IMG/VR virus record: IMGVR_UViG_3300045941_000175
From: a virus
Direction: 5' to 3' (one strand)
Length of the DNA: 48,968 nucleotides
Shown: positions 114 through 31,297 of the stretch, one piece after another
How positions within the stretch are numbered: the stretch's first letter is position 1
How the letters are laid out: every line of letters starts with the position of its first letter
Program-made: the position numbers and the translations under genes
Notes under the pieces: generated by a model
The model's input: the letters and a program-made list of their open reading frames with translations, nothing else
What the model was told of the DNA's origin: nothing
Database searches by the model: none

Positions 114-406
114 TGCAGCTTTATCTTGGCGTTTTTGCGCAGCACCGATTGCAGCACCGCGGTCGCGTCGTTGCCGGCTTGCGTGGTGCAACTGAGATAC
201 AAAAACGTCGACTCGTTTTGCTTGGTGTGATTGGCGCGGACCGTGCCGGTGAGCGGCGGCGGCGTTTGCGCCTGGGCGTTGAAATCCCAAGGCCCCTGAC
301 TGAGGAAAATATGCTGTGACGGGATGCCCGGTCCGCCGCCCGGCACTGGCGTAAGCACGTCCGGGTTTTTGATAGCGACGTCGGCTGGGCTATCCGGCAC
401 TGCCAT
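1..406 (-). CDS. Hypothetical protein, N-terminal part of a junction-spanning gene (216 aa after circularisation; continues at 48855..48611)
   Basis: ATG at 406 (MAVPDSPADVAIKNPDVL...). The frame stays open to base 1 and reads ...FALTDDAILDTSFVPNFMRIPVVFDSG, the peptide that heads ORF 48611..48940. Confidence 0.6.
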   Translation of the reverse strand, partial: MAVPDSPADVAIKNPDVLTPVPGGGPGIPSQHIFLSQGPWDFNAQAQTPPPLTGTVRANHTKQNESTFLYLSCTTQAGNDATAVLQSVLRKNAKIKLQSDATPAQFKVFALTDDAILDTSFVPNFMRIPVVFDSG

Positions 407-429
407 GATTTTGACCTCTCGCGTGGGGA

Positions 430-481
430 CCGCCGCCCGGATCAATGTGTTTGCGATGGATCGTCCGGGCGGCGGCTTTTT
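430..481 (+). terminator. Terminator-like hairpin (12-bp GC stem, about 22-nt loop, T5 tail) read on the plus strand
   Basis: ccgccgcccgga (430-441) pairs with tccgggcggcgg (464-475), followed by cttttt. It sits between two minus-strand genes, so its role is unclear. Confidence 0.35.
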
Positions 482-510
482 CCGGGAGATTGGGACCCCG
501 GAAAAATTCG

Positions 511-795
511 CTATTTTTTCGCCTTTGCCGGCGCTGCGGCCGGCTCATCGAGCGGCGGGGTGGATTGCAGCGGTTCGGTCGGATCGCCGCCGGTAAGGCC
601 GATTTGGTCGGTTCCCGGTCCTTCCGGGGCTGGCTGTTTGATGATGCCTTCCTCGGTTTCGTTCGGTCCGGTCGGGGATCCTGGCGCTCCCATTTGCGCG
701 CTTGGATTGGCCCCTTTTTGTCCTGCCCCTGCCGGGCCGCCGGATGGCCTGGTATCGCGGGAAGCCTGCGGTCGGTCCTGTGTCTGTTCAGCCAT
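511..795 (-). CDS. Hypothetical Pro/Gly-rich, probably disordered protein (94 aa)
   Basis: ATG at 795 preceded by GGAGGA (801-806 on plus). MAEQTQDRPQ... low-complexity sequence. Start trimmed from track ORF 511..828. Confidence 0.5.
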   Translation of the reverse strand: MAEQTQDRPQASRDTRPSGGPAGAGQKGANPSAQMGAPGSPTGPNETEEGIIKQPAPEGPGTDQIGLTGGDPTEPLQSTPPLDEPAAAPAKAKK

Positions 796-842
796 GGATT
801 TCCTCCTCTGAGGAGTTTGGTGTTGCAACGCTCAAGTCTTTA

Positions 843-1304
843 TCACGTCTTTTCGAGGAGCGCTTCCTTCGGCGCCGGCAGCATATTTTGCTCAAGCATT
901 CTTTCGACCAGGGGCTTTCCGTCGGCCATGAGCATGTAGGGCATGAAGACGGCTTCGAATGACAGGACGCCGGTTTCGACTGCCGTCACCTGACCTTTGA
1001 CCCAATCGCGCAGGATGGAATTGACCGCGATTTGCCCTTGGCGGAGCGCGTCCTGTTCGTAGGCGTGGCGGGTCCTTCGCCGGTGCGAATTGTATGGCTT
1101 GGCCTTCATGTGCATGGCGGCCCAGCCTTTGGCGGAGGCGCGCAACTGGATGGCACGGCCGCGGTGGGTGAAGGCGAGGATGATTTCGTGCGCTTCGTAA
1201 TCGTCCATGAATCCGATTGATTCGCAGCCGAAGCGGCGCAGGATTTTGGTGATTTCGCTCCGCGCATTCTCGCCGCTCGTTGCCGTTTCGTAGGGCGTGG
1301 TCAT
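843..1304 (-). CDS. Hypothetical protein (153 aa)
   Basis: MTTPYETATSGENARSEITKILRRFG... The ATG at 1304 overlaps the upstream stop in an ATGA arrangement. Protein-like composition. Confidence 0.6.
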   Translation of the reverse strand: MTTPYETATSGENARSEITKILRRFGCESIGFMDDYEAHEIILAFTHRGRAIQLRASAKGWAAMHMKAKPYNSHRRRTRHAYEQDALRQGQIAVNSILRDWVKGQVTAVETGVLSFEAVFMPYMLMADGKPLVERMLEQNMLPAPKEALLEKT

Positions 1305-1501
1305 TTCTTTTTCCGCTTCCCACGTTTGACTTCCTCGACCACACCTTTGAGGCATTTGACTTCCGAGAGCGTATAGACGCCGACGCCGGCGATCTCGCCA
1401 ACTTCAACGGTTGCATCCTTGTATTCGGTTGCGGAAAACCAATCCGGGCCGTTGGCTTCGGTCTCGCGTTTGACAAAGAGGACTTTCGGGAAGTTGCTCA
1501 T
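1301..1501 (-). CDS. Hypothetical protein (66 aa)
   Basis: 4-nt overlaps with both neighbouring genes. Lys-rich C-terminus. Confidence 0.55.
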   Translation of the reverse strand: MSNFPKVLFVKRETEANGPDWFSATEYKDATVEVGEIAGVGVYTLSEVKCLKGVVEEVKRGKRKKK

Positions 1502-1716
1502 CTAAAACCCTCGACAAAGCGCCGAGCTCCGGGCAGGTCGCGTTGCATGATGTAGAGCATGCCGACCTGCGCAAAGCCGGCTTCGCTCAAGCCCCTGGTT
1601 TCCGGGTGTTTGGAAAGGTCGGACAGCATTGAGGTGACGCCGTTCGCGATCTCGCCCTTGTCGAGATATTCACGCGCCCGGACCTTGCACCATTCCAGGT
1701 GCTCCTCGCGACTCAT
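1498..1716 (-). CDS. Hypothetical protein (72 aa)
   Basis: 4-nt start/stop overlaps on both sides (coupled operon). Confidence 0.55.
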   Translation of the reverse strand: MSREEHLEWCKVRAREYLDKGEIANGVTSMLSDLSKHPETRGLSEAGFAQVGMLYIMQRDLPGARRFVEGFR

Positions 1717-2006
1717 GCGTGGCCCTCCATTTCGGGCTGGCCTTCGAAGCGTTTGATTTGCTCTTTCATGAAGGCGACGACGTCGCGCCGATCGGCACCG
1801 TTGGAAATGTAATTGCAGCGGCCGCCTTGCGCGCCGAACGGGAACACCAGCAGCACAAAGCCGGTGAGCCGATCCTTGCCGCGGCGATCGCCGTTGAAGA
1901 CGGCATCGAGCGCTTGTGCCAGGGCGTTCATTTTTTCGCGGTATTCGTCAGAAATTTCCGCGTCCCCCAGCTTTTTGTCATCCGGCAATTTTTCGAATTC
2001 GCTCAT
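1713..2006 (-). CDS. Hypothetical protein (97 aa)
   Basis: 4-nt overlaps. MSEFEKLPDDKKLGDAEISDEYREKMNAL... Confidence 0.6.
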   Translation of the reverse strand: MSEFEKLPDDKKLGDAEISDEYREKMNALAQALDAVFNGDRRGKDRLTGFVLLVFPFGAQGGRCNYISNGADRRDVVAFMKEQIKRFEGQPEMEGHA

Positions 2007-2248
2007 TCCGCAAGCCTTTGTCTGCCATCGATGATGACGTTTTTGACGCCGGCCTGTTTGAGCAGCACCACGGCCAGCGACTCACAATCGCTGGCAGGCA
2101 GCGCCAGCCAAGTGACCGCCGTACCAAAATCAATAAACACCTGATCGCCCCGTCGTGAGACGGCGACCGCGAGCCCGCCTTTATCGTCGGGACGCAGCTT
2201 GCCTTGCGGGAATTGCCCGCTCGGTCCGGGCCTGTTCATATCGGCCAT
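2003..2248 (-). CDS. Hypothetical protein (81 aa)
   Basis: Operon packing. Overlaps the neighbouring ORFs by 4 and 13 nt. Confidence 0.5.
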   Translation of the reverse strand: MADMNRPGPSGQFPQGKLRPDDKGGLAVAVSRRGDQVFIDFGTAVTWLALPASDCESLAVVLLKQAGVKNVIIDGRQRLAE

Positions 2249-2457
2249 CGTCGCTCGACCTGTCTTTTCAGATCATTGTTTAATTTCTCGACGCCTGTCA
2301 TGGCGTCATCGCGGTCACGCGCAACCATGATGATGGCGGCGCCGAGAATGGCGGTTGTCACCAAAACCACTTCCCTGGTTGTCGCGTTCATGTCCTCGGC
2401 CGCCTGTTTCCAGGCTTTCGACAATTGCATTTCGCGATTGCTCAATGGCTCGCTCAT
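2236..2457 (-). CDS. Hypothetical protein with one central hydrophobic segment (73 aa)
   Basis: VVLVTTAILGAAIIMVA segment. 4-nt overlap with the upstream gene. Confidence 0.5.
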   Translation of the reverse strand: MSEPLSNREMQLSKAWKQAAEDMNATTREVVLVTTAILGAAIIMVARDRDDAMTGVEKLNNDLKRQVERRWPI

Positions 2458-2687
2458 TCAACCTTCTCATAGGTTGCCAGGAAGATCGCATTGTCGATGG
2501 CGTAGATCTCGCCGGCCGCGCCCTTGGCGATCCAATCGCCGCGCTTGCCGGTCATGACGCCTTCCATGGTGGCGATCAAAAAATGGTTGATGCGCTCCGT
2601 CACCTGTTCCCCTGCCCAGGCCGGCGCATCGCCGCGCTTGAACCACTGCACCGCCTCGATCGTCGTTTTCTTGCGGTACGTGCTCAC
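2454..2687 (-). CDS. Small conserved-looking phage protein (77 aa), function unknown
   Basis: MSTYRKKTTIEAVQW...GDWIAKGAAGEIYAIDNAIFLATYEKV resembles, from memory, a widespread small phage protein pattern (KKP..EA.Q...GDWI..G..GE.Y......F..TYE.V). Confidence 0.6.
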   Translation of the reverse strand: MSTYRKKTTIEAVQWFKRGDAPAWAGEQVTERINHFLIATMEGVMTGKRGDWIAKGAAGEIYAIDNAIFLATYEKVE

Positions 2688-2971
2688 AGCTTGACCCCGG
2701 CTTGGCGGAAGATCGCAACAATGTGCCGGACGATTTCCTCGCCCAGCACCATTTCATATTCGGCGCTGTTCTCGCGCTGGGTCGCAAAGCCAATCAGGTG
2801 CACGTGCGCTTTGTCACCCTCATGCCCGCAATCCTCGACCACGGTGCGCTCGGCCGACGGGATCCTGCGGCCGTAATAGTCCCGCGTCCGCCGGAGCTCG
2901 AAAACATTATTGCCATCGGCCATGCAAAACGTCTCTTGATACAGACCTTTGAGAAAATCCCGCATACTCAC
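2684..2971 (-). CDS. Hypothetical protein (95 aa; GTG start at 2971 or ATG at 2965)
   Basis: ORF in the coupled operon. The GTG overlaps the upstream stop. Confidence 0.55.
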   Translation of the reverse strand: MSMRDFLKGLYQETFCMADGNNVFELRRTRDYYGRRIPSAERTVVEDCGHEGDKAHVHLIGFATQRENSAEYEMVLGEEIVRHIVAIFRQAGVKL

Positions 2972-3069
2972 CAGAACAGCACCAGCAGAACGACCGCCGC
3001 AAACAAGACGCTGCCGACAAGAAGCCAGTTCGCCAGCAGCCAGCTTTTGAGAAAATCAAAGTGCTGCAT
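2968..3069 (-). CDS. Small single-pass membrane protein (33 aa), below the ORF-track size cutoff
   Basis: MQHFDFLKSWLLANWLLVGSVLFAAVVLLVLFW. The ATG shares 1 nt with the upstream TGA (TGATG), and its stop overlaps the next start. Confidence 0.45.
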   Translation of the reverse strand: MQHFDFLKSWLLANWLLVGSVLFAAVVLLVLFW

Positions 3070-3290
3070 CACGTCCGCGGGGCGCCATCCGCCTGCCGGC
3101 TGATCGCCACGTTCACCCACATGGCAACCTCGCGAAGTTTGCGCAAAATAAACGTCTTGTCCGGACCGTCCGGCACCAGAACGTCAATCGCATCGGCATA
3201 GGCCTTGGCCGCCTGCCGCATGGTCGCCATGTCGTCAGCCTGCGCATCGGAAGGCTTGAGATAGCCAAACGTCTCTGGATGCAAAGTCAT
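3069..3290 (-). CDS. Hypothetical protein (73 aa)
   Basis: GGAG lies 7 nt upstream of the ATG at 3290. MTLHPETFGYLKPSDAQADDMATMRQAAKAYADAIDVLVP... Confidence 0.6.
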   Translation of the reverse strand: MTLHPETFGYLKPSDAQADDMATMRQAAKAYADAIDVLVPDGPDKTFILRKLREVAMWVNVAISRQADGAPRT

Positions 3291-3848
3291 CGCAAAACTC
3301 CCAATAGGGTGGAGGGGGCCGGATTGGATACCGGGGCAATTTTAGCGCCAGGACGCGCCAAGACGGGCTTCGCCCTGTTGATGCGCGATCGTCTGCCTTC
3401 CCAGGTCAGCACTCACCCCTCCAAAACCGGTGGCCGGCAACTCAGGCTTCTGGTCGTCAGACTTACGCCGTTAAGGTCCCATCACCCGTCAAGGCCGATG
3501 GCTCACCTGTTGCCGGCCAACACCAAACAAACCCCGACCCTCAAACAATGTCAAGCGTAGGCTTGATGCGCTGTGAATAGCTTTTATTTTTTACCGGCGT
3601 CCACTGCCAGCGAACCCACAAACGATGCTTGCGTAACCAACTCGCACCCCTCACCAAAGACCCCCCGCGATCGTCCAACATGAAAAATATCGCACGACCA
3701 CGACCCCAGCGCGGAACGATCGCATGATGAGACAAGCGCATGCTTGACAGCCTTGCATATAGGGCCTTGGGCAGGTGAGGGAGGCTGCCTACCCCGGCAA
3801 CGAATTGAAAACCCCCTCCCCACCCCCCTCCACAAAAAGGGGACCCAA

Positions 3849-4568
3849 TCAAGCCTTGTCCTGCGCTTGGGCCGCGGCTGGGCTCACCGGCTTGGCCGGC
3901 GTGACGTCGATCGCCTGGGCCTCGATCAACCTGCGGGCATCGGGCAGGGATTGTGCGCTTACGATCGCCTGCCGCTGCAGGATGGTGGCGAGCGCTCTTG
4001 CCCGCTCATCGTCTGAGATCGTGTGGTGCACGGTCAAGGCGCCGCTTGTCACTGTTTCAACGCGGTCCGCGTACACCTTCGGCCGCAACTTGCTCGCCAT
4101 CCACTGCCGGGTATTGACGCGCAACTTGGCCGCATTCACCGCGGCCGGCTCGGCCTCGCCTTCCGCGTCGTCTGCAATTGCAATGCAATCATCGGCCAGA
4201 GCATCGGCGCCGGCTTCACGTGCCCGACTGTAGCACTCCGCGAAAGTCGGATCATCCCGCAACCAATTAAACCAGGCCATCCGTGCTGGGCCTTGCGGGA
4301 ATGCGCTGCAGAATGCGACCAGGGATTTACCTGCGGTCAACCATTCACAGAGGGCGGCTTGCCAATGGGCCTTTTCCTCCGGAGGCCATGCCCGCGGTTG
4401 TGTGACCATGGGCGGGGAGACTTTCGGCTTATGACCGTTGCGGTATTCCGCGGCTTTGCGCTGGGGCTTGTTTTTGCGCTTTTTGCGCACGTATTCGCGG
4501 TCCGCCTTGCGTTTACGGGCTTTGCGTTCGAGGCCGGCGAGGAATGCCGGCGCCTGTAGTCGTTTCAT
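3849..4568 (-). CDS. Terminase small subunit-like DNA-binding protein (239 aa)
   Basis: Core W..ALCEWLTAGKSLVAFC...WFNWLRDDPTFAECYSRAREAGADALADDCIAIADD...AKLRVNTRQWMASKLRPKVYADR matches the pattern I recall for Sf6-gp1-like small terminases. It is not adjacent to TerL. Confidence 0.5.
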   Translation of the reverse strand: MKRLQAPAFLAGLERKARKRKADREYVRKKRKNKPQRKAAEYRNGHKPKVSPPMVTQPRAWPPEEKAHWQAALCEWLTAGKSLVAFCSAFPQGPARMAWFNWLRDDPTFAECYSRAREAGADALADDCIAIADDAEGEAEPAAVNAAKLRVNTRQWMASKLRPKVYADRVETVTSGALTVHHTISDDERARALATILQRQAIVSAQSLPDARRLIEAQAIDVTPAKPVSPAAAQAQDKA

Positions 4569-4671
4569 GAGGCACCCTTTGCGAATGCTGCGCTGATTCG
4601 TTTGCGCCCTGGGGAAAACTATTCGCTTTCCCGAGGCGCATCAAAGCATTGCACCCCGATCGCTGGGCATT

Positions 4672-4690
4672 GACCTATATGTAGTAGGTC
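4672..4690. promoter_or_regulatory. Palindrome GACCTA-N7-TAGGTC in the divergent control region between the leftward and rightward early blocks
   Basis: gacctatatgtagtaggtc. It contains CTATATGTAG, the reverse complement of a 10-mer that recurs at 11603-11612. Confidence 0.3.
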
Positions 4691-4774
4691 CGCGGCCGGA
4701 CACATACAAGCCGAGCTCCTAAGCCAATGGTTTCATTGACACTAAAATAATTTGCGCAAAATACTGGCGCTAGG

Positions 4775-4803
4775 CTTGACAGGCTTCGCACCCCCCCTTA
4801 CGT
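4775..4803 (+). promoter_or_regulatory. Candidate rightward early promoter (CTTGAC-N17-TTACGT)
   Basis: CTTGAC at 4775-4780 and TTACGT at 4798-4803. Same architecture as 10608-10636. A second candidate is TTGACA at 4736-4741. Confidence 0.3.
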
Positions 4804-4945
4804 TCGGCTTGCTTTTCGGCCCCATCGCTACGGCAACCGCCGGCGCCAATGGCTCAAGCGGGGACTTCCGACGGCACACTTTAGCGGCAAGTGCCACGCT
4901 ATGGCGCACCGCTACCGGGTAGCCGCACTAATCACATGGTCAAGA

Positions 4946-5020
4946 ATGCAAGCCCATGCCGCGGGCAATTAAAGCGCGGCATGTTCGAGCATTCACGCTC
5001 GGCAACCAGGAGAGAAGACC
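4946..5020 (+). promoter_or_regulatory. Early-operon structured cassette, copy 1
   Basis: TGCAAGCC, then hairpin CATGCCGCG/CGCGGCATG, then hairpin CGAGC-attcac-GCTCG, then GCAAC, then GGAGAGAAGACC, then ATG at 5021. Confidence 0.7.
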
Positions 5021-5203
5021 ATGAAACTGAACAACCCATACAAGTGGACCGCAAAGGACCGCGCCGAATACGTGACCGAAGTCGAGACCGGCGAGGAAGT
5101 CTTTAGCTGCTGCCATGGCCATATCAATTGCGCGACATACCCGCACGGCCCTTGCGTTAACGAAGTCATGATTTGCATGGAAGAAAAAGGCGAAAGCGAA
5201 TGA
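5021..5203 (+). CDS. Hypothetical Cys/His-rich protein (60 aa)
   Basis: SD plus ATG directly after cassette 1. ...FSCCHGHINCATYPHGPC... Confidence 0.6.
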   Translation: MKLNNPYKWTAKDRAEYVTEVETGEEVFSCCHGHINCATYPHGPCVNEVMICMEEKGESE

Positions 5204-5391
5204 AAACCCCGCAAGTGCCGGCCCTGCCCGGCATGACCCCGCTCGGCATCAAGCCCTATGCCCAAATTCTGGCAGAGGCGCCGTTAAAGCCTAAGGCCAA
5301 CCAGGAGGCTTGCGACGTCGGCCTATTCGGGGACGACGCAAAGCAATTGGACCTCATCGACATAAGGGCGAAGCCCGTCTCATGCCCATAA
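5200..5391 (+). CDS. Hypothetical protein (63 aa)
   Basis: The ATG at 5200 forms an ATGA overlap with the upstream stop. Trimmed from track ORF 5173..5391. Confidence 0.5.
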   Translation: MKTPQVPALPGMTPLGIKPYAQILAEAPLKPKANQEACDVGLFGDDAKQLDLIDIRAKPVSCP

Positions 5392-5460
5392 GTGCAAGCC
5401 ATAGAGCCCCGCGGGGCTCTATTTCGTGCACTCAAGCACGGCAACGAAAACGGAGAGACC
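5392..5460 (+). promoter_or_regulatory. Early-operon structured cassette, copy 2
   Basis: GTGCAAGCC, then ATAGAGCC/GGCTCTAT hairpin, then TTCGTGC-actcaa-GCACG, then GCAAC, then GGAGAGACC, then ATG at 5461. Confidence 0.7.
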
Positions 5461-5685
5461 ATGACAGACCTGCGCATAGCCCTGGTTATCAAAGGCACCC
5501 CAGGAGAAGCAGCCGCCGCGGCCGCAGCCCGCGGAATTCCGCTTTTATTCAAACGCGAGGCTTTGGGCGAAACCATTGGCGAAACCAGCGAAGACTACCG
5601 CGACAAGGTGGGCGCCTGGTTTGCCGAACAGCCGGCCAGCGCACCATTCCCAGCCGGGACCTTGCTGCTCTACCAGGACGCCTAA
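5461..5685 (+). CDS. Hypothetical protein (74 aa)
   Basis: MTDLRIALVIKGTPGE... The start is placed at the ATG that follows the cassette SD. The track ORF 5392..5685 would read through the cassette. Confidence 0.6.
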   Translation: MTDLRIALVIKGTPGEAAAAAAARGIPLLFKREALGETIGETSEDYRDKVGAWFAEQPASAPFPAGTLLLYQDA

Positions 5686-5698
5686 GCCATCCTCGCGA

Positions 5699-5768
5699 TT
5701 GCAAGCCCAAGGCGCCGCAACACGGCGCCTTGTTCGTGCAATCCCGCACGGCAACAGGAGACTAGACC
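5699..5768 (+). promoter_or_regulatory. Early-operon structured cassette, copy 3
   Basis: TTGCAAGCC, then AAGGCGCCG/CGGCGCCTT hairpin, then TTCGTGC-aatccc-GCACG, then GCAAC, then AGGAGACTAGACC, then ATG at 5769. Confidence 0.7.
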
Positions 5769-6830
5769 ATGAAGACCGGATTAAGCCTTTCAGAATTGGC
5801 CGCCAAGATCGAAGGCAATAAAGCCCTGAAACAGGATTTTATTGCAGACACCGCGGCGACCACGATGCAAGTGCAAGCCGATAAAACGATCGTGCTTGAA
5901 ATCCCGCAGCCTGGGACCGCTATCCCGAATAGCTTTCCCATCCTGCCAATCGCGCACGATCAAATCGGCGCACGGCTGAACATTCCGGCCAAATACTACG
6001 ACCGGATGCAGGCCGAGGCGCCCGATTTGCTGGCGACAAACGTAAATGCTTGGTTCCGCAAGAACCCCGAAAAGCGGATGATAAGAACGCTCGGCGGCGA
6101 CGCCCGCGCCTTCCTGTCAAACCGCTACAATCGCATCGAAAACGAGGAAATTGCAGAGGTTGTTTTGCCAATCCTGGCAGACATCCCCGGCGTTCGAATC
6201 CTTTCGAGCGAAATCACGGACCGGCGAATGTATATCCAAGCCCTGACCCCGCGCACCGAAGGCGAGGTAAAAAAGGGCGACGTCGTACAGGCCGGAGTCG
6301 TGATCTCCAACTCAGAGACCGGACACGGCGCCGTCAGCATTTCCCCGCTGGTTTATCGCCTGGTCTGCCTCAATGGCATGATCGCCAACGATGGACGCCT
6401 GCGGGCAAACCACGTCGGCGGCCGTATCGAGGAGACGGAAGCGCTCTACCAGGACGACACCAGGAAAGCGGACGACCGGGCAATCTTGCTCAAGGTCCGC
6501 GACCACGTCCGCAATGCGGTCGACTCGGTGGCGTTTGCTGCCCGCGTCGAAGCCATGGCCGGCCTTGTGCGCCAGCCGATCGCCGGCGATCCGGTGGCGG
6601 CCGTCGAAGTGCTGGCCAAAAAAGTCGGCGCCACCGACGGCGAGCGGGGCGGGATCCTGCGCTCGCTGATCGAGGGCGGCGACCTGTCCGCCTGGGGATT
6701 GCTGAACGCAGTCACCGCGCAAGCCCACGCGGCGCCCGACTATGACCGCTCAATCGATTTTGAGCGCATGGGCGGCGCCTTGCTTGAGCTCCCCCGCAAC
6801 GAATGGACGCGAGTCCTTGAGGCGGCCTAA
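5769..6830 (+). CDS. DUF932-like (phage/plasmid-like) protein (353 aa)
   Basis: ...RAFLSNRYNRIENEEIAEVVLPIL...GDVVQAGVVISNSETGHGAVSISPLVYRLVCLNGMI... matches my recollection of the DUF932 core (..S.rY..i.N..l......G..i.NSe.G.....v.....RLvC.NGm). Confidence 0.65.
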   Translation: MKTGLSLSELAAKIEGNKALKQDFIADTAATTMQVQADKTIVLEIPQPGTAIPNSFPILPIAHDQIGARLNIPAKYYDRMQAEAPDLLATNVNAWFRKNPEKRMIRTLGGDARAFLSNRYNRIENEEIAEVVLPILADIPGVRILSSEITDRRMYIQALTPRTEGEVKKGDVVQAGVVISNSETGHGAVSISPLVYRLVCLNGMIANDGRLRANHVGGRIEETEALYQDDTRKADDRAILLKVRDHVRNAVDSVAFAARVEAMAGLVRQPIAGDPVAAVEVLAKKVGATDGERGGILRSLIEGGDLSAWGLLNAVTAQAHAAPDYDRSIDFERMGGALLELPRNEWTRVLEAA

Positions 6831-6833
6831 CGA

Positions 6834-6907
6834 TGCAAGCCCAGGCGGCCGGCTTCACAAGCCGGCCGCCTGATCGTGCACCGCACGGCAACAGAGGAGA
6901 AAGAACG
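6834..6907 (+). promoter_or_regulatory. Early-operon structured cassette, copy 4
   Basis: TGCAAGCC, then 13-bp hairpin AGGCGGCCGGCTT/AAGCCGGCCGCCT, then ATCGTGC-acc-GCACG, then GCAAC, then AGAGGAGAAAGAACG, then ATG at 6908. Confidence 0.7.
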
Positions 6908-7060
6908 ATGTCCGACCATGATGCAATGCTCGCCATCCAAGAATGCTTGGACGGCACCGAATGGAATTCGAACACGCTTGAGGAGGTTGCGGCGATCATG
7001 ACCGCGGCCGGCTACAAAATCCGCGACCTCGACGACGTCGAACGCGAGGCCACACCATGA
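6908..7060 (+). CDS. Hypothetical acidic protein (50 aa)
   Basis: MSDHDAMLAIQECLDGTEWNSNTLEEV... begins right after the cassette SD. Trimmed from track ORF 6833..7060. Confidence 0.55.
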   Translation: MSDHDAMLAIQECLDGTEWNSNTLEEVAAIMTAAGYKIRDLDDVEREATP

Positions 7061-7311
7061 ACCCGCTAACAATCGGAGCGCTCATGCTGGCCGGCTTTGC
7101 GTTCCTAACCTGGGCAACCGCGCCGGCAAAATACGGCGCCGAGCCGCGGCTAACACCGAATGCCGAAGACTCTGACTTTTGCATGCCGGCCGAAGTCACA
7201 GGCGGAGCCGCGATCGCCTACCACTGCCACGCCGGCGAGATCGGTTGCAAAACGCACCCCGTAACGGATTGCGAGGCCGACGATCGCGACGACTTTGCAG
7301 AAGATGATTAG
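7057..7311 (+). CDS. Hypothetical protein with N-terminal hydrophobic segment and Cys-rich acidic C-terminus (84 aa)
   Basis: ATGA overlap with the upstream gene. MNPLTIGALMLAGFAFLTWATAPA... Confidence 0.55.
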   Translation: MNPLTIGALMLAGFAFLTWATAPAKYGAEPRLTPNAEDSDFCMPAEVTGGAAIAYHCHAGEIGCKTHPVTDCEADDRDDFAEDD

Positions 7312-7386
7312 TGCAAGCCCAAGGCGCTGCGGACCCCGCGGCGCTTTGTTCGTGCACTTTCGCACGGCAACAGAGGAGATAAGACC
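7311..7386 (+). promoter_or_regulatory. Early-operon structured cassette, copy 5
   Basis: GTGCAAGCC, then a 12-bp hairpin with two G.U pairs (AAGGCGCTGCGG/CCGCGGCGCTTT), then TTCGTGC-actttc-GCACG, then GCAAC, then AGAGGAGATAAGACC, then ATG at 7387. Confidence 0.7.
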
Positions 7387-7890
7387 ATGAGCACCTTTAT
7401 TGAGCCGGCCGAGATCCTGGCCGGCCACGTCTCACCGGAGACCGCGTACGTTGTCGCGGATTACCCGTATGGCTATACGCTGCGCTGCAAAATCCGCTAT
7501 TGGCTGGAATTCAAATCGGGCAAGGGAGTCCGATTCTGGTCGCAAACGACAAACCCCAAGCGACCCGGCGAAGTCTGGAACAAGCCGAAGTCTTCCACTT
7601 ACTGCCGTTTCGGCGGCGCCATGTACCTGGACGAAAACGGCCACTGCAAATGGAGCGGACTCACCGAATACAGCACGGCCGCCGAGGCGCAAGCCTGGGC
7701 GAGCAAATGGCGCGAAGGCGTCCCACCGGAAGCCCTGCCCGACCTTGACCGCTGGATTGCGGGCAAGGTTGCGTATGAGCAAGCCCGCGCCAAGGCGGCC
7801 GGCGAGGAGCCCACCCATACCCTGCCGCTCGCCGTCGGCCTGGTCGAGGCTCACCAGGCGATGGCCGCGGCCGACAAGACCGAGAAATAG
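7387..7890 (+). CDS. Hypothetical protein (167 aa)
   Basis: ...VVADYPYGYTLRCKIRYWLEFKSGKGVRFWSQTTNPKRPGEVWNKPKSSTY... looks like a conserved globular family. I cannot name it reliably. Confidence 0.65.
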   Translation: MSTFIEPAEILAGHVSPETAYVVADYPYGYTLRCKIRYWLEFKSGKGVRFWSQTTNPKRPGEVWNKPKSSTYCRFGGAMYLDENGHCKWSGLTEYSTAAEAQAWASKWREGVPPEALPDLDRWIAGKVAYEQARAKAAGEEPTHTLPLAVGLVEAHQAMAAADKTEK

Positions 7891-7970
7891 CGCAAGCCCA
7901 GGCGGCCGGCTTTTTGGAGCTCGGCCGCCTGATCGTGCGCTTAAGCACGGCAACGAAAGGAGCGAAGACC
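7890..7970 (+). promoter_or_regulatory. Early-operon structured cassette, copy 6
   Basis: GCGCAAGCC, then AGGCGGCCG/CGGCCGCCT hairpin, then ATCGTGC-gcttaa-GCACG, then GCAAC, then GAAAGGAGCGAAGACC, then ATG at 7971. Confidence 0.7.
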
Positions 7971-8207
7971 ATGCCTATTGATTGGGACGACCCGGCCGCC
8001 CGCGGCCGGTTGATCGAAAGAGTCGGCGCCGAGGAATACAGCCGACTCCTTGCAATCCACTTCAAGCAAAGCACCCTTGCGACCATCAACGGCCACGCAA
8101 TTCGGCCGGTTATGTCGCGCTTCGGGCGCCTGTTTTCGGTGGGAAACACTAACCGCGCTTTTGCCACCCTGGGCGAGGCGGCCGCCTTTGCGAGGGCAAC
8201 GCCATGA
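7971..8207 (+). CDS. Hypothetical protein (78 aa)
   Basis: MPIDWDDPAARGRLIERVGAEEYSRLL... starts after the cassette SD. Trimmed from track ORF 7914..8207. Confidence 0.6.
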   Translation: MPIDWDDPAARGRLIERVGAEEYSRLLAIHFKQSTLATINGHAIRPVMSRFGRLFSVGNTNRAFATLGEAAAFARATP

Positions 8208-8527
8208 GCATCGACGGCAAAGCAATCGCCTACGGCGCCCTTTTCCTGGCGGCCGTAGCGGTGGCCCTGGCCGGCCACCTCATAACCCCGCCGGCCGCAA
8301 CCCCGCCGCGACCTATCCCAGCGATTAAGCCGATGGACATGGGCCGGCACCTTGAGGAAATGATCGACCGGCAACAGAGTCGGGACCTTAACAGCCTGGG
8401 CAAGATCGGCCCCGAGCACGATGCCTGGATCCTGAAACGCTACCAGAAGCCGGCACCGGCGCCGCAACCTGCAAAACCACCGGACACCCGAGTCCGGCCG
8501 CGGCCCTTGATATTTCAGACGACCTAA
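8204..8527 (+). CDS. Hypothetical membrane-anchored Pro-rich protein (107 aa)
   Basis: ATGA overlap with the upstream gene. N-terminal TM segment AIAYGALFLAAVAVALAGHLI. Confidence 0.55.
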   Translation: MSIDGKAIAYGALFLAAVAVALAGHLITPPAATPPRPIPAIKPMDMGRHLEEMIDRQQSRDLNSLGKIGPEHDAWILKRYQKPAPAPQPAKPPDTRVRPRPLIFQTT

Positions 8528-8578
8528 CGAAACCGGCCGCGAGCGATCGCGGCCGGCCACTCCCCCGCCCGCCCGGCA

Positions 8579-8600
8579 CCCGCCGCGGCGGGCTTTTTTT
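8579..8600 (+). terminator. Rho-independent terminator ending the rightward early operon
   Basis: Palindromic stem cccgccgcggcggg (8579-8592) followed by c plus T7. It is preceded by a second perfect 10-bp hairpin, ccggccgcga/tcgcggccgg, at 8533-8556. Confidence 0.8.
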
Positions 8601-8627: not shown

Positions 8628-8679
8628 CCTGGACGGGCAGCCCGATTCAACAAAACCTGGACGGGCAGCCCGATTCAAC
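8628..8679. repeat. Perfect 24-bp direct repeat x2 separated by AAAA (28-bp period)
   Basis: cctggacgggcagcccgattcaac at 8628-8651 and again at 8656-8679, in the non-coding gap between the early-operon terminator and the moron island. Confidence 0.9.
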
Positions 8680-9217: not shown

Positions 9218-9787
9218 TCAAGCGGTTGCGAGACGACCGCGGGTAAAGAACGCCCGGATCTTTTCGCGATTGCTTACACCGAACAGCGCAGCCAAGCCGC
9301 TGAGAAACAGCCACACGGCGGCAGGCAGCGGCACCGGCGGCGGGACGGTGGCAAGGTTGCCGCCGTAGCCGGACGTGCCGTTGGCAAAGCCCGCTATGTT
9401 GAGGAAGTAATCCCCCGCAAGCAGGAAAGCCGAGCCGGCCATACCCTGACAATTCGGGATGGGTCCGCAGCCGAGTACGGCAAGGACCGGCCCGATGACG
9501 GTTGCGCCAGGAATTGCCGGCGTTCCCGCAATCACCGACGCATTAAAGCCGGTGATGAAGTCAGAGGCTTGCGCAAAGACGTTGGTCACGGACGCGATGG
9601 TCAGTGTCGCGTTTTGCGTCAGGTGGAAGGTGTATTGATCCGAAAACGCGCCGACGAGTGCGCCCAACGAGTGATTGAAGGCACCAGCCGCCGATGTCGG
9701 ATCATCACCGAAGCTAGTGATGGTTGCCGCCTTGAGTGGCGTTGCAAGCGCCACCAATGCAGCAATAGCAAAGACAACTCTCCTCAT
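9218..9787 (-). CDS. Secreted protein with VPLPA-CTERM/PEP-CTERM-type C-terminal sorting signal (189 aa)
   Basis: N-terminal signal peptide MRRVVFAIAALVALATPLKA. C-terminus is VPPPVPLPAAVWLFLSGLAALFGVSNREK, which is motif, TM helix and basic tail. Confidence 0.75.
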   Translation of the reverse strand: MRRVVFAIAALVALATPLKAATITSFGDDPTSAAGAFNHSLGALVGAFSDQYTFHLTQNATLTIASVTNVFAQASDFITGFNASVIAGTPAIPGATVIGPVLAVLGCGPIPNCQGMAGSAFLLAGDYFLNIAGFANGTSGYGGNLATVPPPVPLPAAVWLFLSGLAALFGVSNREKIRAFFTRGRLATA

Positions 9788-9802: not shown

Positions 9803-10507
9803 TTATGCCCGCTGAGATCGTCCCGCATCGGGCGACGGGTCGTTGTTTTTGCGGCGTCTGTTCAGCAGGTACAAACCAACGAGACCTGTGCCGAACAACC
9901 AAACGGCGCCCGGAATTGGCACTTCCGGAACACTGAAAGGCGTGGGACCGCCGCTAAGATCGACAAAGCCAGTGCGGCCATTCGTGCCGCTCAAAATGTC
10001 GAGCACCATGAACGCCAAGGTATCCCCCGGCGGAGTGGTTGACAGTTCAGCGAAGCTCGCCAGCGTGAGACCGGCGCCGCTGATTGAGAACGACGCAGAG
10101 GTGGGACCATTGCCCCCGCTCCATGTCCCCTCGATGCCGTATTCAAAGTTGCCGAAGCCATCGGCGGCAAGAACCCCGGCGTTTTGCTGGTTGACCGGGA
10201 TCACACCGGGAATCGAGAACGATGCCGATAGGCCGGAGTAGGTGATCGTTGGATTGCCGACCAGGTTGAAACCAAAGACGACGTCCTGCCCGCCATTGGC
10301 AAAATTGTTGCCATTGAGAAAGGCGATCGCAATATCGATGGTGCCATTTTCATGATCGGTTGCGGTGATGGTGGCAAAGCCGTTGGCTTGCGGGCCGCAC
10401 AGATTGGTACAGTGATCGGAGAAAAAAGTGCCCGTCGCGACCGTGACACCCTTGGCCGGCAGCGTTGTGGCGGCGAGCAGCGCCGCGAGCAGCAGGATTT
10501 TTCGCAT
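9803..10507 (-). CDS. Secreted protein with PEP-CTERM-type C-terminal sorting signal (234 aa)
   Basis: Signal peptide MRKILLLAALLAATTLPAKG. C-terminus is VPEVPIPGAVWLFGTGLVGLYLLNRRRK. AAGGAGG SD upstream of the ATG at 10507. Confidence 0.75.
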   Translation of the reverse strand: MRKILLLAALLAATTLPAKGVTVATGTFFSDHCTNLCGPQANGFATITATDHENGTIDIAIAFLNGNNFANGGQDVVFGFNLVGNPTITYSGLSASFSIPGVIPVNQQNAGVLAADGFGNFEYGIEGTWSGGNGPTSASFSISGAGLTLASFAELSTTPPGDTLAFMVLDILSGTNGRTGFVDLSGGPTPFSVPEVPIPGAVWLFGTGLVGLYLLNRRRKNNDPSPDAGRSQRA

Positions 10508-25099: not shown

Positions 25100-28000
25100 T
25101 TACCGCCCTGCTTCGGCCGGCAGAGACAATGGCGCTGCTTTGCCTTTCTTGACAGTCACGCCGCCGGCGTCGACGGCGCCGCGGCCGCTTCGCCTGCCGC
25201 CGCCCTCATAACCCTGTGAGGCGGCCTGCAGGCTTATCGTCTTTAGCTGGTTTGCAAGCTGATTGGGATTAACAGATTCGCCGGCCCGCAGGATACGCTG
25301 GGCTTTCGGCCAATAGGTTTGAATGCTGCTAATCGGCATGACCTTGTTACGAGCCAATTGACCGCTCAATTCTCGCCCCACCTCCGGCGAGACCTTGTTG
25401 ATGACGTCGAGATAGGGCTGGGTGTCGACGATCGGCAGATATTTGTAGCCCGGAAGCCCTTGCACGATATTGGAATTGCGCGCCTCAATCGCGGTGTATT
25501 CGTTAAGCGCCTGCACCAGAATGTCGACCTTGCCCTTTTCGACCTTGATGCGAATGCTGGGATCGCGAAGCGTGGCCAGGCCGCCCTCCGCCAAAAGCCC
25601 GTTTTTCAGAGACCGCGTCACCGATGCGAGCGCAGAGGCGCGATCGAGCGGATGCAGTACCTTGGAAAGCGGCCCGCCCGCCGTTTGGTGAACACGCACA
25701 TAGTCGCGCTGTGCATCGTCGAGCGTGTTGAAATACGTGGTGGCGGCAACGGTGTCGCCATCCTTGACCAATTTGCTCATCGATTTATTGGCAACCGTCA
25801 GCCGGCCGCCGTTCTGCCCAATCTGATTATAGAGTTCGTTCATGGGCTCGCCCATGGCCATGCGATCTTTGACGAAAGCGCGCAACGCCGGCACGTCGCT
25901 GATCTTGAAATTGGCTTCCTGGCCAGAGAGCCCATTTATGAGGGACCGGCCAATTCCACCAATGCCGCCGAGCTCCCGCGGCCAATCCCCGAACATGCCC
26001 TGCATGAGATATTGCGCTTCCATCGGGGACCAGGCGGCCCCGATCATGGCGCCGACAACCGGAATGTTTTTGCGGAACCAATCACGCGCATCCTCCGAAT
26101 TCCAAATCATGTTCATGCCCTGGGCCAGGGCAACGTAGAATTTGTTGGTGTATTCATTGGCTTGCAGATGCGGCGCCACGCCCTGCAGGCTTTGCGACAC
26201 GATCGGCCGCTGAAAGAAACTATCGTAATTCGACGCCAGGCCGGTTGCCGTCTTGATCGCCGGCAATTCGAACGGGTTAGGAACGCTGAATGTGTAGCGC
26301 ATCGAGGCGAGGAATTTTACCGCTTGCTGCGGATCGCCGGAGTGCAGGAATTCAACCGCCTTCTCCGCCAGGTTGAAGGCAGTGCCAGGCTCCCAGGGCT
26401 TCGGAATGAAGATCCAGGCGCCTTGCATCCCCTCCGGCAAATTCACTGTGCCGCCGCCGAGCATGTCGTACACGCCTGCTTTGAGGAACGGCAGGCGGAA
26501 GATCCAGTTTTGCGAGCGCTGTTGCACCGAAAGCCGCTGATAGACCGGATCGTCTTGCCAGGCATAGGTGATGCCGGCCGAGATCGCCGCGAGTGCGCCG
26601 ATGCGGGGAATGAGAGTTTGCCGCAAGGCCTGTTGATACTCGGCCTGTTGCTTGGTGAAGGGCTTGAAGAACATGCCAGGCGAATTCGGGGTGCCGGAAT
26701 AGGTGCGGATGAACTTGTCGAGACCCTGAATGTTTGCGTTCATGAACGGCACCAGGCGCGACCACATTTCCATCTTTGAGCCCATGCGGCCGTAATCGAT
26801 GAAATCCCGCGCCTTCATTGCCGCATCAAACATGGCGTAACGCGGATCCCGATTGGCGGCGATATTGGCCTCATAGACCGCACGAAACAGCCCGACGCGA
26901 CCGGCGGTTTCCGATATTTCCATGCGCGACATAAGTTCCTTGACGTTGCCGATCCAAATTTGCTTGTGCGGTTCGACGCCGGCCACGCCCAGGGTCTTCG
27001 CCATTTCGACGCGGGACGCCTGCAGGGCGGATGGATTGAATTTGCTTTTCCCGATCGCCGGCGTCGTCTCGGTTGCTTCCTCGGTGAAGCGCTTAATCTG
27101 CCGTTCGAATTCGACCTGTTGCGTACTGCGGGAAAGACCTGAGGCGCCGACACCGCCGCGAATGCCGCCGGTCGACAAATACATGCGGTAAAAATCATCG
27201 CCCAAAAGATACGAGCGGCCGCCGCGGACAGCGTTCGCCAGGGCAAGCGTAGAAGCGTCAGCTTCCGGCACCAAAAGAAACTGCATGAAAGCGTCACGCA
27301 GCAGGTTTTTCGCCATGAAGGTCGGCGTCCCCGTTGCGCCGGTGCGCAGGGTTTGCGAGGTGAAGGTGAGCGTGTCCATCATAAGACCGCCGGCCTGTGC
27401 CCAGGTCGCCATGCCCTTCGGCCCGAGCGAATCCATCACCTCGACTAGGTGCTGCCCGAACAATCCATCCGGCAATCGCATGGCAAAGCGTTCGCCATTT
27501 TCCCAGCCGAAGATGATCGGCCGGCTGCCGGCCTTGATGGCTTCCTGGCGATAAAGCTTGGTGCGAATATCGGGACCGAGTTCGTGCTGCAGATTACGCA
27601 CAAGGCCCTTGGCGTCTTCCGGCATCCAGCCCGCGGCAGTCGCGGCCTTATAAACCGCCTCCTCGACGTTGATGTCCATTGCGCGCAATTCATTGCTCGG
27701 AATCATTTCGGCAATGCGAGCGCCTTCCTTGCCGCCGACCAGGTTCACCAGGTCACGCAATGCCCGGACGATCATATTCTGATGTGCTTGGTTGTTGATG
27801 TCGGCCAGGCGAACCATGAGGCTTTCGGTCGGGGAAAGAATGTCGCGGCCGGAACCGGTGCGCTTAAAGCGGCCAAGCTCCTCGAGCGGCTTGTCGCCAC
27901 GGAATGAACCGCCGACACCGAGCGATTCTGTGATACCGCTCATATCGCGATAGAGGTGCACAAATCGGTGATTCCGGTCGTGCATGATGTCGTTATAGGA

Positions 28001-31000: not shown

Positions 31001-31297
31001 GTCTTTCTGGAAGGCGGCGCGTTGCTCCGGCGTCATGTCCTTGGCTTGCTGCGCTGCACCTGCAGCAGCAGTCGCGCCGAGCAACGTCTTGCGGTGCATG
31101 TCCTGGAAATTCAGCCGGACGCGCTCCTCGCGCTCCTCGCCTGGCGTCAGTGGCGTGAATGGATCCGGTTTTTCGCCGGGCTTGGCGGCGACCTTGTTCG
31201 CCATCGTTTCGGAAAAATCGCCCGGCGCCGGCGGGACCGCGAAGCTGTCCGGCGTTCCTGGTAGCGACGGATCGACCTGATATGAGTCTTCCGCCAT
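25100..31297 (-). CDS. Giant virion-associated (internal/ejected, polyvalent-type) protein (2065 aa) with an embedded HExxH metallopeptidase-like motif
   Basis: Uninterrupted 6.2-kb ORF between the gp16-like gene and the tail fibre. ...TTWSHEVGHAVEDR... is encoded at 28934-28948. Confidence 0.75.
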   Translation of the reverse strand: MAEDSYQVDPSLPGTPDSFAVPPAPGDFSETMANKVAAKPGEKPDPFTPLTPGEEREERVRLNFQDMHRKTLLGATAAAGAAQQAKDMTPEQRAAFQKDVEQGVIASGAELPVDLSGAKDVNFDAIQNDAKDHLIKIQADDLAYKNMPAWKGLVEGAYSLAGQFAGGMASPEGLVFPEIKWGNAAWQAAHPLMSSVISFGFGQAAIQGAANPVIQDQQIKAGLRKKFDPVEAMLAYPEGFAFGGGLAALSHGGAALFRYGSRALERYMIDGVMVGPQLTPEVKPHIPAEPPRAPADTFEVGAAQEVPGVPANRGVSVGTMPEGAEGTVRLFRAAGEGDDAVKALQFTTHEFPGATHFIDVPEAFAAAEAKGDRVSLPAEFARAAQEIPPDIRTTAEGIPFMITQDMRAQLAERGYTPEQIKTMTPAEAQQILSAPAERSVFENLTDFDKATRKGEEPQTFTQWVRSQGGIEPGPELKAIYGYTKSDLVRKRAKGGKSLDEIREAAVQQGWIPDEGLESGGMATSTPNDVLKRLADENKGVKHYHPGETAKAQAAEARRDPKLIQTMDEIDVHLREVNQHPSQLKGVDKKVAKDIRNRAIEIAYTEKDITPEVAFDRAMREYDQHAAAIAEQKFTGTAHDPGDVLPGFEEGAFARATPGEGGAIGEVGPGGERAPGAAAPEGGGGVAPSAEEVRIAKRLKGMAGQGIGRPPGQTRPGEGVASANFHGPLTPIENLRQMMRRISDKLDLIVRKGVHERGALGTYNYDTKIVRIKEDGPDAVTTWSHEVGHAVEDRVPAITTLIENKDESMRAFAGVMGEGLEGAELRSEGFAEFMAGYVTNRARLERIDPKFVKDFRETMARENPELLATLDDAHASFERWNAAPSDQAVDAIIRTHGEVPAPIPGDPLQRGPLARAMSNFYWNYVNKQHPLTVAFRYLAQEYEKKHGKLLDLRPDQDPRLLAQVLGDAGFQKTVMDLTYGIQSMRDLTPEGASVFSILRKVTSDPLTGKEVSTAAEYLARRKSFDGYLTARWHIELRRQMSNGEIDLTRMPTGLTDGEAAQKIAQVEKLHPEWSGYAEEIYGVHKLVAKLEHENGLRTTESYNDIMHDRNHRFVHLYRDMSGITESLGVGGSFRGDKPLEELGRFKRTGSGRDILSPTESLMVRLADINNQAHQNMIVRALRDLVNLVGGKEGARIAEMIPSNELRAMDINVEEAVYKAATAAGWMPEDAKGLVRNLQHELGPDIRTKLYRQEAIKAGSRPIIFGWENGERFAMRLPDGLFGQHLVEVMDSLGPKGMATWAQAGGLMMDTLTFTSQTLRTGATGTPTFMAKNLLRDAFMQFLLVPEADASTLALANAVRGGRSYLLGDDFYRMYLSTGGIRGGVGASGLSRSTQQVEFERQIKRFTEEATETTPAIGKSKFNPSALQASRVEMAKTLGVAGVEPHKQIWIGNVKELMSRMEISETAGRVGLFRAVYEANIAANRDPRYAMFDAAMKARDFIDYGRMGSKMEMWSRLVPFMNANIQGLDKFIRTYSGTPNSPGMFFKPFTKQQAEYQQALRQTLIPRIGALAAISAGITYAWQDDPVYQRLSVQQRSQNWIFRLPFLKAGVYDMLGGGTVNLPEGMQGAWIFIPKPWEPGTAFNLAEKAVEFLHSGDPQQAVKFLASMRYTFSVPNPFELPAIKTATGLASNYDSFFQRPIVSQSLQGVAPHLQANEYTNKFYVALAQGMNMIWNSEDARDWFRKNIPVVGAMIGAAWSPMEAQYLMQGMFGDWPRELGGIGGIGRSLINGLSGQEANFKISDVPALRAFVKDRMAMGEPMNELYNQIGQNGGRLTVANKSMSKLVKDGDTVAATTYFNTLDDAQRDYVRVHQTAGGPLSKVLHPLDRASALASVTRSLKNGLLAEGGLATLRDPSIRIKVEKGKVDILVQALNEYTAIEARNSNIVQGLPGYKYLPIVDTQPYLDVINKVSPEVGRELSGQLARNKVMPISSIQTYWPKAQRILRAGESVNPNQLANQLKTISLQAASQGYEGGGRRSGRGAVDAGGVTVKKGKAAPLSLPAEAGR

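Follow-up and report, generated by a model that had tools for sequence, protein, structure and literature searches.

A repeated two-hairpin RNA element with two competing folds between the cistrons of an uncultured soil phage operon

Results and Discussion

A nine-cistron operon carries six copies of one element

The 48,968-nt viral DNA of IMG/VR record IMGVR_UViG_3300045941_000175, called the window here at its full length, contains a plus-strand operon of nine cistrons in which an element of about 75 nt occurs six times. The cistrons span 5021-5203, 5200-5391, 5461-5685, 5769-6830, 6908-7060, 7057-7311, 7387-7890, 7971-8207, and 8204-8527. The one at 5769-6830 encodes a DUF932 protein, and the other eight have no recognizable function. 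From its position, the operon is presumably early. All six copies of the element lie on the plus strand, each ends at the ATG of a cistron, and the only junctions that lack one are the three ATGA overlaps, at 5200, 7057, and 8204. A sequence-only reading of the window had placed six such units before the cistrons that are not ATGA-coupled to a predecessor, and this held: a covariance model built from the six copies (model R1) recovered all of them from the whole window at 81-93 bits (E 1e-22 to 1e-25). It returned no further plus-strand copy in the 49 kb, its sole other matches being weak, on the reverse strand, and to the palindromic hairpin A described below. The exact decamer GCACGGCAAC is present five times in the operon, with one chance match inside an open reading frame at 44281 (-).

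The element can form three helices. An outer helix of the form ANNGCA/UGCN'N'U closes hairpin A across a 4x4 bubble in which a G-C pair may form. The outer helix lends its 3' strand to hairpin B as a 5' arm, and hairpin B is followed by GCAAC, a Shine-Dalgarno (SD) sequence, and the start codon. The bubble, AGCC/(U/A)UCG, and a single-stranded GGCAAC are invariant. The outer-helix variants proposed earlier (GUGCA/UGCAC, UUGCA/UGCAA, and GCGCA/UGCGC) do covary as claimed, but the helix is 6 bp rather than 5 bp long and has mismatches in copies 1 and 4.

We set the limits of each copy from the first outer-helix base to the base before the ATG. Copy 1 (4945-5020, ATG 5021) lies in the 5' leader and has no real upstream cistron. 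Its outer helix (4945-4950/4988-4993) pairs AAUGCA with AGCAUU around an inner A.A mismatch, its bubble is AGCC/UUCG, and hairpin A (4955-4983) is followed by hairpin B (4986-4990/4997-5001), GCAAC (5002-5006), and the SD. Hairpin B is CGAGC/GCUCG here and CGUGC/GCACG in the other five, the double change that had been described. Copy 2 (5391-5460, ATG 5461) pairs AGUGCA with UGCACU (5391-5396/5427-5432), and its outer helix overlaps the upstream stop codon TAA by 1 nt; hairpin A is at 5401-5422, hairpin B at 5425-5429/5436-5440, and GCAAC at 5441-5445. Copy 3 (5698-5768) precedes the DUF932 gene (ATG 5769), with outer helix AUUGCA/UGCAAU (5698-5703/5737-5742), hairpin A at 5708-5732, hairpin B at 5735-5739/5746-5750, and GCAAC at 5751-5755.

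Copy 4 (6832-6907, ATG 6908) has the outer helix GAUGCA/UGCACC (6832-6837/6877-6882) with one A.C mismatch, the bubble AGCC/AUCG, a 14-bp hairpin A (6842-6872), a hairpin B (6875-6879/6883-6887) with a loop of 3 nt, and GCAAC at 6888-6892. Copy 5 (7310-7386, ATG 7387) shares the first two bases of its outer helix with the last two bases of the preceding stop codon, TAG. Its outer helix is again AGUGCA/UGCACU (7310-7315/7353-7358), its hairpin A (7320-7348, 13 bp) does contain the two G.U pairs noted previously, and hairpin B (7351-7355/7362-7366) and GCAAC (7367-7371) follow. Copy 6 (7889-7970, ATG 7971) also overlaps an upstream TAG with its outer helix, AGCGCA/UGCGCU (7889-7894/7936-7941). 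It has the bubble AGCC/AUCG, hairpin A at 7899-7931, hairpin B at 7934-7938/7945-7949, and GCAAC at 7950-7954.

The likely promoter of the operon, judged by conservation and consensus, is at 4771-4804 (+), where the box TAGGCUUGACA (equivalent to TAGGCTTGACA, 4771-4781) is followed 17 nt downstream by the -10-like TACGTT. The box TAGGCTTGACA is unchanged in five related phages. A promoter scan predicted a sigma-70-like site at 4736-4765 (+) as its sole match, and neither promoters nor terminators were found inside the operon. The leader of about 130 nt between the promoter and copy 1 is conserved (4771-4944 in the window; also in L238, L239, L251, and L258, four of the related contigs introduced below), with the sequence TTTTCGGCCCCAT ... 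GGGAC(A/T)TCCGA; an operator or an additional regulatory RNA may lie there. The last stop codon is directly followed by a GC-rich 10-bp hairpin without a U tract (8533-8556, +), which looks like hairpin A on its own and could act as a 3' stabilizer. An intrinsic terminator (+; stem 8579-8592 followed by seven T, region to 8600) ends the operon and faces convergent genes.

The element is confined to a group of related phages

The same element is present one to seven times per equivalent operon in at least six related soil and rhizosphere phage contigs. Homologues of the DUF932 protein led to L238 (48 kb), L239/L240/L241, and L258, which share the small terminase gene and divergent operon layout of the window, and further carriers, L251, L253, L255, and L257, came to light in soil and rhizosphere assemblies when metagenome contigs were scanned by pattern. 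Our alignment (A3) holds 36 matches below E 1e-6, representing 35 distinct copies. All 35 run in the same direction as the genes, with an SD and an ATG at their end. In L238 and L239, whose called genes we compared junction by junction, a copy stands at every non-overlapping junction up to the last element. Past that point, L239 has a gap of about 200 nt without a copy and then two more plus-strand genes. A leader copy is present in every relative.

Beyond this group, we found little that resembles the element. A second covariance model, built from all copies (model R2), detected none in other phage types carrying homologues of the DUF932 protein (up to 79% identity) or of gene 7 (62-67%), except for a degenerate copy in L259, and none in 100 IMG/VR loci with a chance match to the 3' motif. 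In IMG/VR, a strict pattern had no match and a first loose pattern gave chance matches only. PLSDB plasmids, searched with BLAST, and GenBank phages gave no match. Rfam 15 returned nothing over the window at gathering thresholds and only unrelated sub-threshold matches in E-value mode, in line with the earlier impression that no described family was involved, and a literature search for the motif or a described equivalent found nothing relevant. The element is a new, narrowly distributed RNA family with two competing folds.

Short palindromic units that recur between genes can also arise as dispersed repeats, and the element could in principle be a host-derived sequence of the repetitive extragenic palindrome (REP), bacterial interspersed mosaic element (BIME), or miniature inverted-repeat transposable element type that colonized the operon. 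It shares with REP and BIME units the form of a GC-rich intercistronic hairpin able to protect upstream mRNA, but those are host-chromosomal, dispersed in both orientations, and not tied to a ribosome-binding site (RBS), while the copies described here are found in this operon only, in one orientation, and fused to an RBS. The sequence-only reading had named a REP-like repeat as what a dispersed occurrence in a host chromosome would indicate. In a strict pattern scan of 185,579 species-representative genomes, the matches listed, at least 120 in number, were single ones at chance level in unrelated taxa. Of 100 such loci that were re-scored, the highest reached 24.9 bits, against 60-93 bits for true copies. 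Together with the negative plasmid and phage searches, this makes a host-chromosome origin unlikely and the dispersed-repeat explanation barely credible.

Covariation supports three helices in plus-strand RNA

The alignment supports all three helices by covariation, and the claim that RNA structure is conserved beyond sequence is well borne out. The outer helix and hairpin A are 98.2% paired across the 35 copies, compared with 22-45% when their 3' partners are slid by 1-3 columns. Double changes occur in 12 of 16 pairs, and none of 500 shuffles reached the observed covariation score. Adding homologues had been proposed as a check on the covariation, and for the outer helix it gave three pair types at one position (columns 7/94: GC 17, UA 10, AU 6, and one mismatch) and two at each of two others (columns 8/93: UA 28, CG 6; columns 6/95: AU 32, GC 2). 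Since these columns are flanked by invariant, ungapped sequence, their covariation is not an artefact of fitting the alignment to the model. The sequence of hairpin A is free to vary, as is its length, from 9-14 bp to branched forms of 49-58 nt, yet the hairpin is always paired.

Hairpin B shares nucleotides with the outer helix, so the two are mutually exclusive. It is CGUGC/GCACG in most copies, CGAGC/GCUCG in copy 1 of the window, and CGGCA/UGCCG in three copies, with a loop of 3-17 nt whose sequence is not fixed. In the last class, the 5' strand of the element has lost one A (AUUGC-AGCC), the outer helix AUUGC/GCAAU still pairs, and hairpin B has been rebuilt. Hairpin B has thus been kept through two independent compensatory events, one of them coupled to a compensating loss of an outer-helix pair. 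Retention of the outer helix while hairpin B was rebuilt indicates that both competing helices are selected, and we regard this class as the strongest single argument for selection on both folds. A three-way junction formed by UGC/GCA, which RNAfold adds to the state with hairpins A and B and which is part of its minimum-energy structure for several copies, was considered and rejected: where column 8 changes from U to C, the outer helix always has the compensating change and GCAAC never does (five unpaired cells).

These data bear on whether the element acts as DNA or as RNA. Hairpin A contains 16 G.U pairs against 5 A.C mismatches, and this bias, the one orientation of all copies, and their attachment to an RBS jointly point to plus-strand RNA rather than DNA. 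At the DNA level, hairpin A could be a terminator and hairpin B a promoter of the N4 type for a virion RNA polymerase, or the whole could be a promoter-early stem-loop (PeSL) composite, making each module its own transcription unit. The early promoters of phage N4 are hairpins that loosely resemble hairpin B, which has a stem of 5 bp and a short loop and lies about 10-15 nt ahead of the SD. The phage also encodes a 2065-aa virion protein (25100-31297, -), most of it without assigned function. This protein shows an LPD38 "large polyvalent protein" domain (residues 1583-1781) and no polymerase domain, no other recognizable domain, and no PDB relative. Hairpin B does not have a fixed loop, and an outer helix that covaries in competition with it, like the G.U bias, fits RNA.

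PeSLs are composites of a terminator and an early promoter that act at the level of DNA and transcription (PMC4122927). As in the T4-type cases, short conserved intergenic motifs flank variable small genes, and the indel and replacement breakpoints between close relatives fall at the motifs. The conserved features here are instead covarying RNA helices. No sigma-70 promoter was found within the elements, where the gap of about 40 nt between hairpin A and the ATG is filled by hairpin B, GCAAC, and the SD. A terminator scan flagged none of the six elements, hairpin A being followed by UUCGUGC or AUCGUGC and not by a U tract. The features that define PeSLs are thus missing, and of the earlier analogy to them only the shuffling of cassettes survives. 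We consider explanations at the DNA level very improbable.

Gene cassettes are reassorted at the elements

Comparison of the operons showed that gene cassettes have been reassorted at the elements between genomes. Conserved arms common to all copies make the elements joints for homologous exchange of cassettes between related phages. This could be their primary role, in the manner of PeSLs or integrons, with RNA structure secondary: shared conserved arms of 30-40 nt would let the phage's own Erf/RecE-type system swap units of an element plus its gene with those of co-infecting relatives. Several observations favor such exchange. The same hairpin A variant lies between unrelated genes (L251:438 and L239:7821, identity 0.96, with flanks at a background of about 0.6), and homologous genes lie behind unrelated hairpins A (L238:7820 and L239:8669, downstream identity 0.81, hairpin A 0.60). 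The gene 2 homologue follows the DUF932 gene in L258 and precedes it in the window, and in L239 extra cassettes have been inserted between the elements. The phage encodes RecE-like and Erf-like recombination proteins.

Recombination, however, needs sequence identity only, and leaves unexplained the compensatory changes in three helices, the G.U bias, the orientation, and the fixed distance to the SD. Moreover, no integrase-type gene lies beside the array, whose neighbor is a small terminase gene. Because recombination cannot account for the compensatory changes, exchange is better seen as a consequence of the shared arms than as their selected function, and we think it quite unlikely that the elements are recombination joints first. 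A reading as integron attC sites was rejected for want of an R/L box consensus and of an integrase next to the array.

Two folds of similar energy next to an open ribosome-binding site

Folding with and without the outer helix had been suggested as a further check, and it showed two states of near-equal predicted energy: under constraints, the energy gap between the folds is about 3 kcal/mol at most in almost every copy. The sequence-only reading had implied that such a two-state RNA controls the adjacent RBS. This part did not stand. Between the two constrained states, mean unpaired probabilities are 0.48 and 0.51 for the SD (p 0.18) and 0.63 and 0.64 for the AUG (p 0.48), so that the RBS is predicted to be accessible in both. 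A riboswitch-like model in which one fold gates the RBS was rejected on the same values.

The main rival to the reading we favor below is a different kind of switch, one that senses translation. A ribosome terminating upstream would melt the 5' strand of the outer helix and allow hairpin B to form; otherwise, the outer helix would form. The state would set the fate of the downstream cistron through re-initiation, standby binding, or protection from decay, coupling cistrons without cleavage. The upstream stop codon is well placed for this, falling -2 to +4 nt from the outer helix or overlapping it in most internal copies and inside hairpin A in some. Near-equal fold energies would let a modest input flip the RNA, and covariation maintains both folds. 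However, the first copy of each operon lies in an untranslated leader and yet keeps all features, the predicted accessibility of SD and AUG is the same in both states, and RNase III sites of phage T7 are equally close to stop codons. The invariant bubble has no role in such a switch. On balance, we hold the translation-sensing switch to be unlikely.

A further possibility is that a phage or host protein reads AGCC, UUCG, and GGCAAC as single strands displayed by the hairpins, acting as a translational repressor or activator of all these genes together or in antitermination of the nut or put type that works on RNA polymerase. In favor of this, the stems differ between copies but the bubble and GGCAAC do not. 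The put RNAs of phage HK022 are two-hairpin RNAs of similar size, and lambda nut and HK022 put are likewise cis-acting structured RNAs downstream of an early promoter; the element shares the two-hairpin layout, with one copy shortly after the promoter. In contrast, nut and put sites occur once per operon and act over a distance on terminators. Six copies far exceed what antitermination needs, the elements have no boxA-like motif, and the operon has no internal terminator. The terminator at its end faces convergent genes, so read-through there would be unwanted. No RNA-binding protein was recognized among the proteins scanned, and the hairpin B loop is variable. We therefore regard a protein-binding site as improbable.

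A putative signal for intercistronic mRNA processing

The reading we favor, although we place it somewhat short of an even chance, is that the element is an intercistronic signal for mRNA processing and stability that punctuates the operon. By analogy with the early region of T7, the plus-strand polycistronic mRNA would carry each unit as a cis-acting element. As ANNGCA, hairpin A, and UGCN'N'U emerge during transcription, the extended irregular hairpin would form first, with its 6-bp lower stem, the bubble AGCC/(U/A)UCG, and an upper stem of 9-14 bp or longer. A host endonuclease specific for double strands, most likely RNase III, would then cut once at the 3' side of the bubble. The upstream product would retain hairpin A at its 3' end as a shield against 3' exonucleases, and the freed downstream strand would refold into a 5'-terminal hairpin B (CGUGC-loop-GCACG), with GCAAC as a single strand, the SD, and the AUG coming after it. 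The outcome would be six discrete, stable, and independently translated mRNA modules, with the leader copy serving to trim the 5' untranslated region. Cleavage, the identity of the enzyme, the position of the cut, and stabilization of the products by the hairpins are all points that we infer from this analogy.

The processing model would explain why both competing helices are conserved and why they compete for exactly the nucleotides beside the predicted cut. It would also explain why the stem of hairpin B is constrained but its loop is free, why the RBS is open in both states, and why there is a leader copy.

For comparison, we folded the intergenic segments of the T7 early region, using the RNase III sites R0.3, R0.5, R1, R1.1, and R1.3 at the positions reportedly given by Dunn and Studier 1983. 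The folded sites have a lower stem of 5-8 bp, an internal loop of 4-6 nt, and an upper stem of 9-13 bp, often with AAGG/CCUU at its base. Site R0.3 lies in the leader after the tandem A promoters, the others lie between early cistrons, and the stop codon of gene 0.4 is inside the lower stem of R0.5. Where an internal loop is present, RNase III makes one cut only, and a protective 3' hairpin remains (PMC1540722); R1.1, with a 4/5-nt internal loop, has one primary cut site in vivo (PMC6121014).

The analogy to the T7 sites that had been drawn for the element is a good fit in architecture and in placement. Both sets are repeated irregular hairpins of about 60-80 nt between cistrons, alike in sequence among copies, with a lower stem, an internal loop, and an upper stem of about 10 bp, which together make an irregular hairpin of about two helical turns. 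Both have a leader copy, stand 25-45 nt ahead of the next start codon, and may have the upstream stop in the lower stem. Both belong to operons that are transcribed, in the present case presumably, by the host RNA polymerase and are bounded by one or more upstream promoters and one terminator; in the window, read from its sequence, the six copies fall between the promoter region at 4736-4804 and the terminator at 8579-8600. The phage also has a T7-type virion module. The differences are that the bubble is symmetric (4x4) and invariant, that a hairpin B supported by covariation takes its 5' arm from the 3' strand of the lower stem, that the upper stem tolerates branched insertions of 20-30 nt, and that no RNA polymerase of its own was detected in the phage. 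T7 bases 400-8000, searched with model R2 with filters off, gave a best match of 13.4 bits that lies inside gene 0.7. The element would thus be an analogue or a very distant relative of the T7 sites, outside their sequence family.

Several points weigh against processing. The invariance of GGCAAC is not explained by it, and the lower stem is only 6 bp. Profile similarity of the T7 sites to model R2 is not significant and at noise level (8.6 bits, E 0.19, for R1.3 and 4.7 bits for R0.5), and the T7 sites have no equivalent of hairpin B. The near-equal fold energies and the stop abutting the outer helix would suit a terminating-ribosome switch as well, and the invariant single-stranded AGCC, UUCG, and GGCAAC could be a protein-recognition site. 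By analogy, the element is best placed among the intercistronic processing signals of phages, as a variant that is bistable.

Possible significance

The element adds a well-supported family to the known cis-regulatory RNAs, with 35 distinct copies and covariation for two competing folds. If the processing model is true, the cutting of an early polycistronic RNA into stable monocistronic messages, as in T7, would be older and more widespread than the coliphage examples, and the refolding of the released strand into a 5'-terminal hairpin would be a refinement not described for T7.

A broader and rather doubtful proposal combines the properties discussed above: the element would be a plug-and-play cassette adaptor, a bistable RNA that insulates each small accessory gene in the mRNA by cleavage and by the protective 3' and 5' hairpins newly formed, senses the ribosome terminating upstream, and by means of its conserved arms enables the exchange of whole units of adaptor and gene between genomes. 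If this were true, it would be a phage counterpart of integron cassettes that works through RNA structure and homologous recombination. Engineered insulators such as Csy4/Cas6 hairpins, RiboJ, and RNase III sites place a cleavable spacer before each RBS, so that expression is independent of neighbors and the mRNA has a defined 5' end. The element follows the same design logic, but it is natural, bistable, and dependent on a putative nuclease. As a compact natural insulator with a built-in RBS, it could serve operon engineering in GC-rich bacteria.

The content of the operon may also matter here. A small-gene cluster divergent from the operon contains a gene for a 73-aa Acb2/Tad1 hairpin-domain protein (3069-3290, -), of the anti-CBASS/Thoeris nucleotide sponge family, and an Acb2/Tad1-type gene is likewise present in L238, L239, and L258. 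This neighbor suggests an anti-defense neighborhood. Taken together with the DUF932 gene, it raises the possibility that the cassettes of the operon are counter-defense genes, and the element could explain even expression and quick exchange of such putative genes.

Genomic setting and further observations

The window is 60% GC, and its first 113 nt (1-113) are identical to its last 113 nt (48856-48968), which indicates a complete genome that is circularly permuted or terminally redundant. The identity reflects either an overlap in a circular assembly or a short direct repeat of the termini. No GenBank phage is a close DNA relative of the window, and capsid identity to GenBank phages is at most 44%. 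A T7-type virion module occupies the minus strand, with genes for the portal (41223-43124), the major capsid protein (38767-39780), tail tube B (35334-37670), a gp14-like internal protein (34855-35331), an 1184-aa lytic internal protein, and a tail fiber with a T7-type N-terminus, in addition to the 2065-aa protein. A phage RNA polymerase was not detected, the large virion proteins included, although a very divergent one could escape a sequence search. ARAGORN found no tRNA, tRNA-like, or tmRNA genes in the window. We place the source in an uncultured soil podovirus lineage with T7-like virion genes and no detected RNA polymerase of its own.

The minus-strand gene adjoining the operon and divergent from it (3849-4568) encodes an Sf6-type small terminase rather than a repressor. 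Directly past the operon terminator, CCTGGACGGGCAGCCCGATTCAAC forms a perfect tandem repeat of period 28 (8628-8651 and 8656-8679), possibly an iteron bound by a protein. Convergent with the operon are two genes that encode proteins with signal peptides (9218-9787, -, and 9803-10507, -). The protein encoded at 9803-10507 has a C-terminal PEP-CTERM-like sorting signal, VPIPGAVWLFGTGLVGLYLLNRRRK; its gene may be a host-derived moron and a pointer to an exosortase-bearing host.

Some related loci carry repeats worth recording. In L266, which has a gene-7 homologue, a repeated intergenic unit (L266:7481-7521 and L266:8938-8978) is promoter-like, consisting of TTGACC-N17-CATATAA and an SD with no hairpin cassette. 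In L238, pieces of the 5' arm (GGGCGCAAGCCCGTCTCATG) have been duplicated at two elements, either within the element or immediately ahead of it (L238:4768-4875 and L238:7063-7090), and these look like scars of recombination between copies. L242, a different phage type with a DUF932 gene of 78% identity, carries an intergenic repeat of its own, about 80 nt long and immediately 5' of two genes (L242:6013-6093 and L242:6894-6973), with a closing helix GGCC/GGCC, two hairpins showing compensatory stem changes between the copies, and then AUCGAACCUAUGGAG. This repeat is unrelated to the element in sequence and matches it in design, which hints at a wider class.

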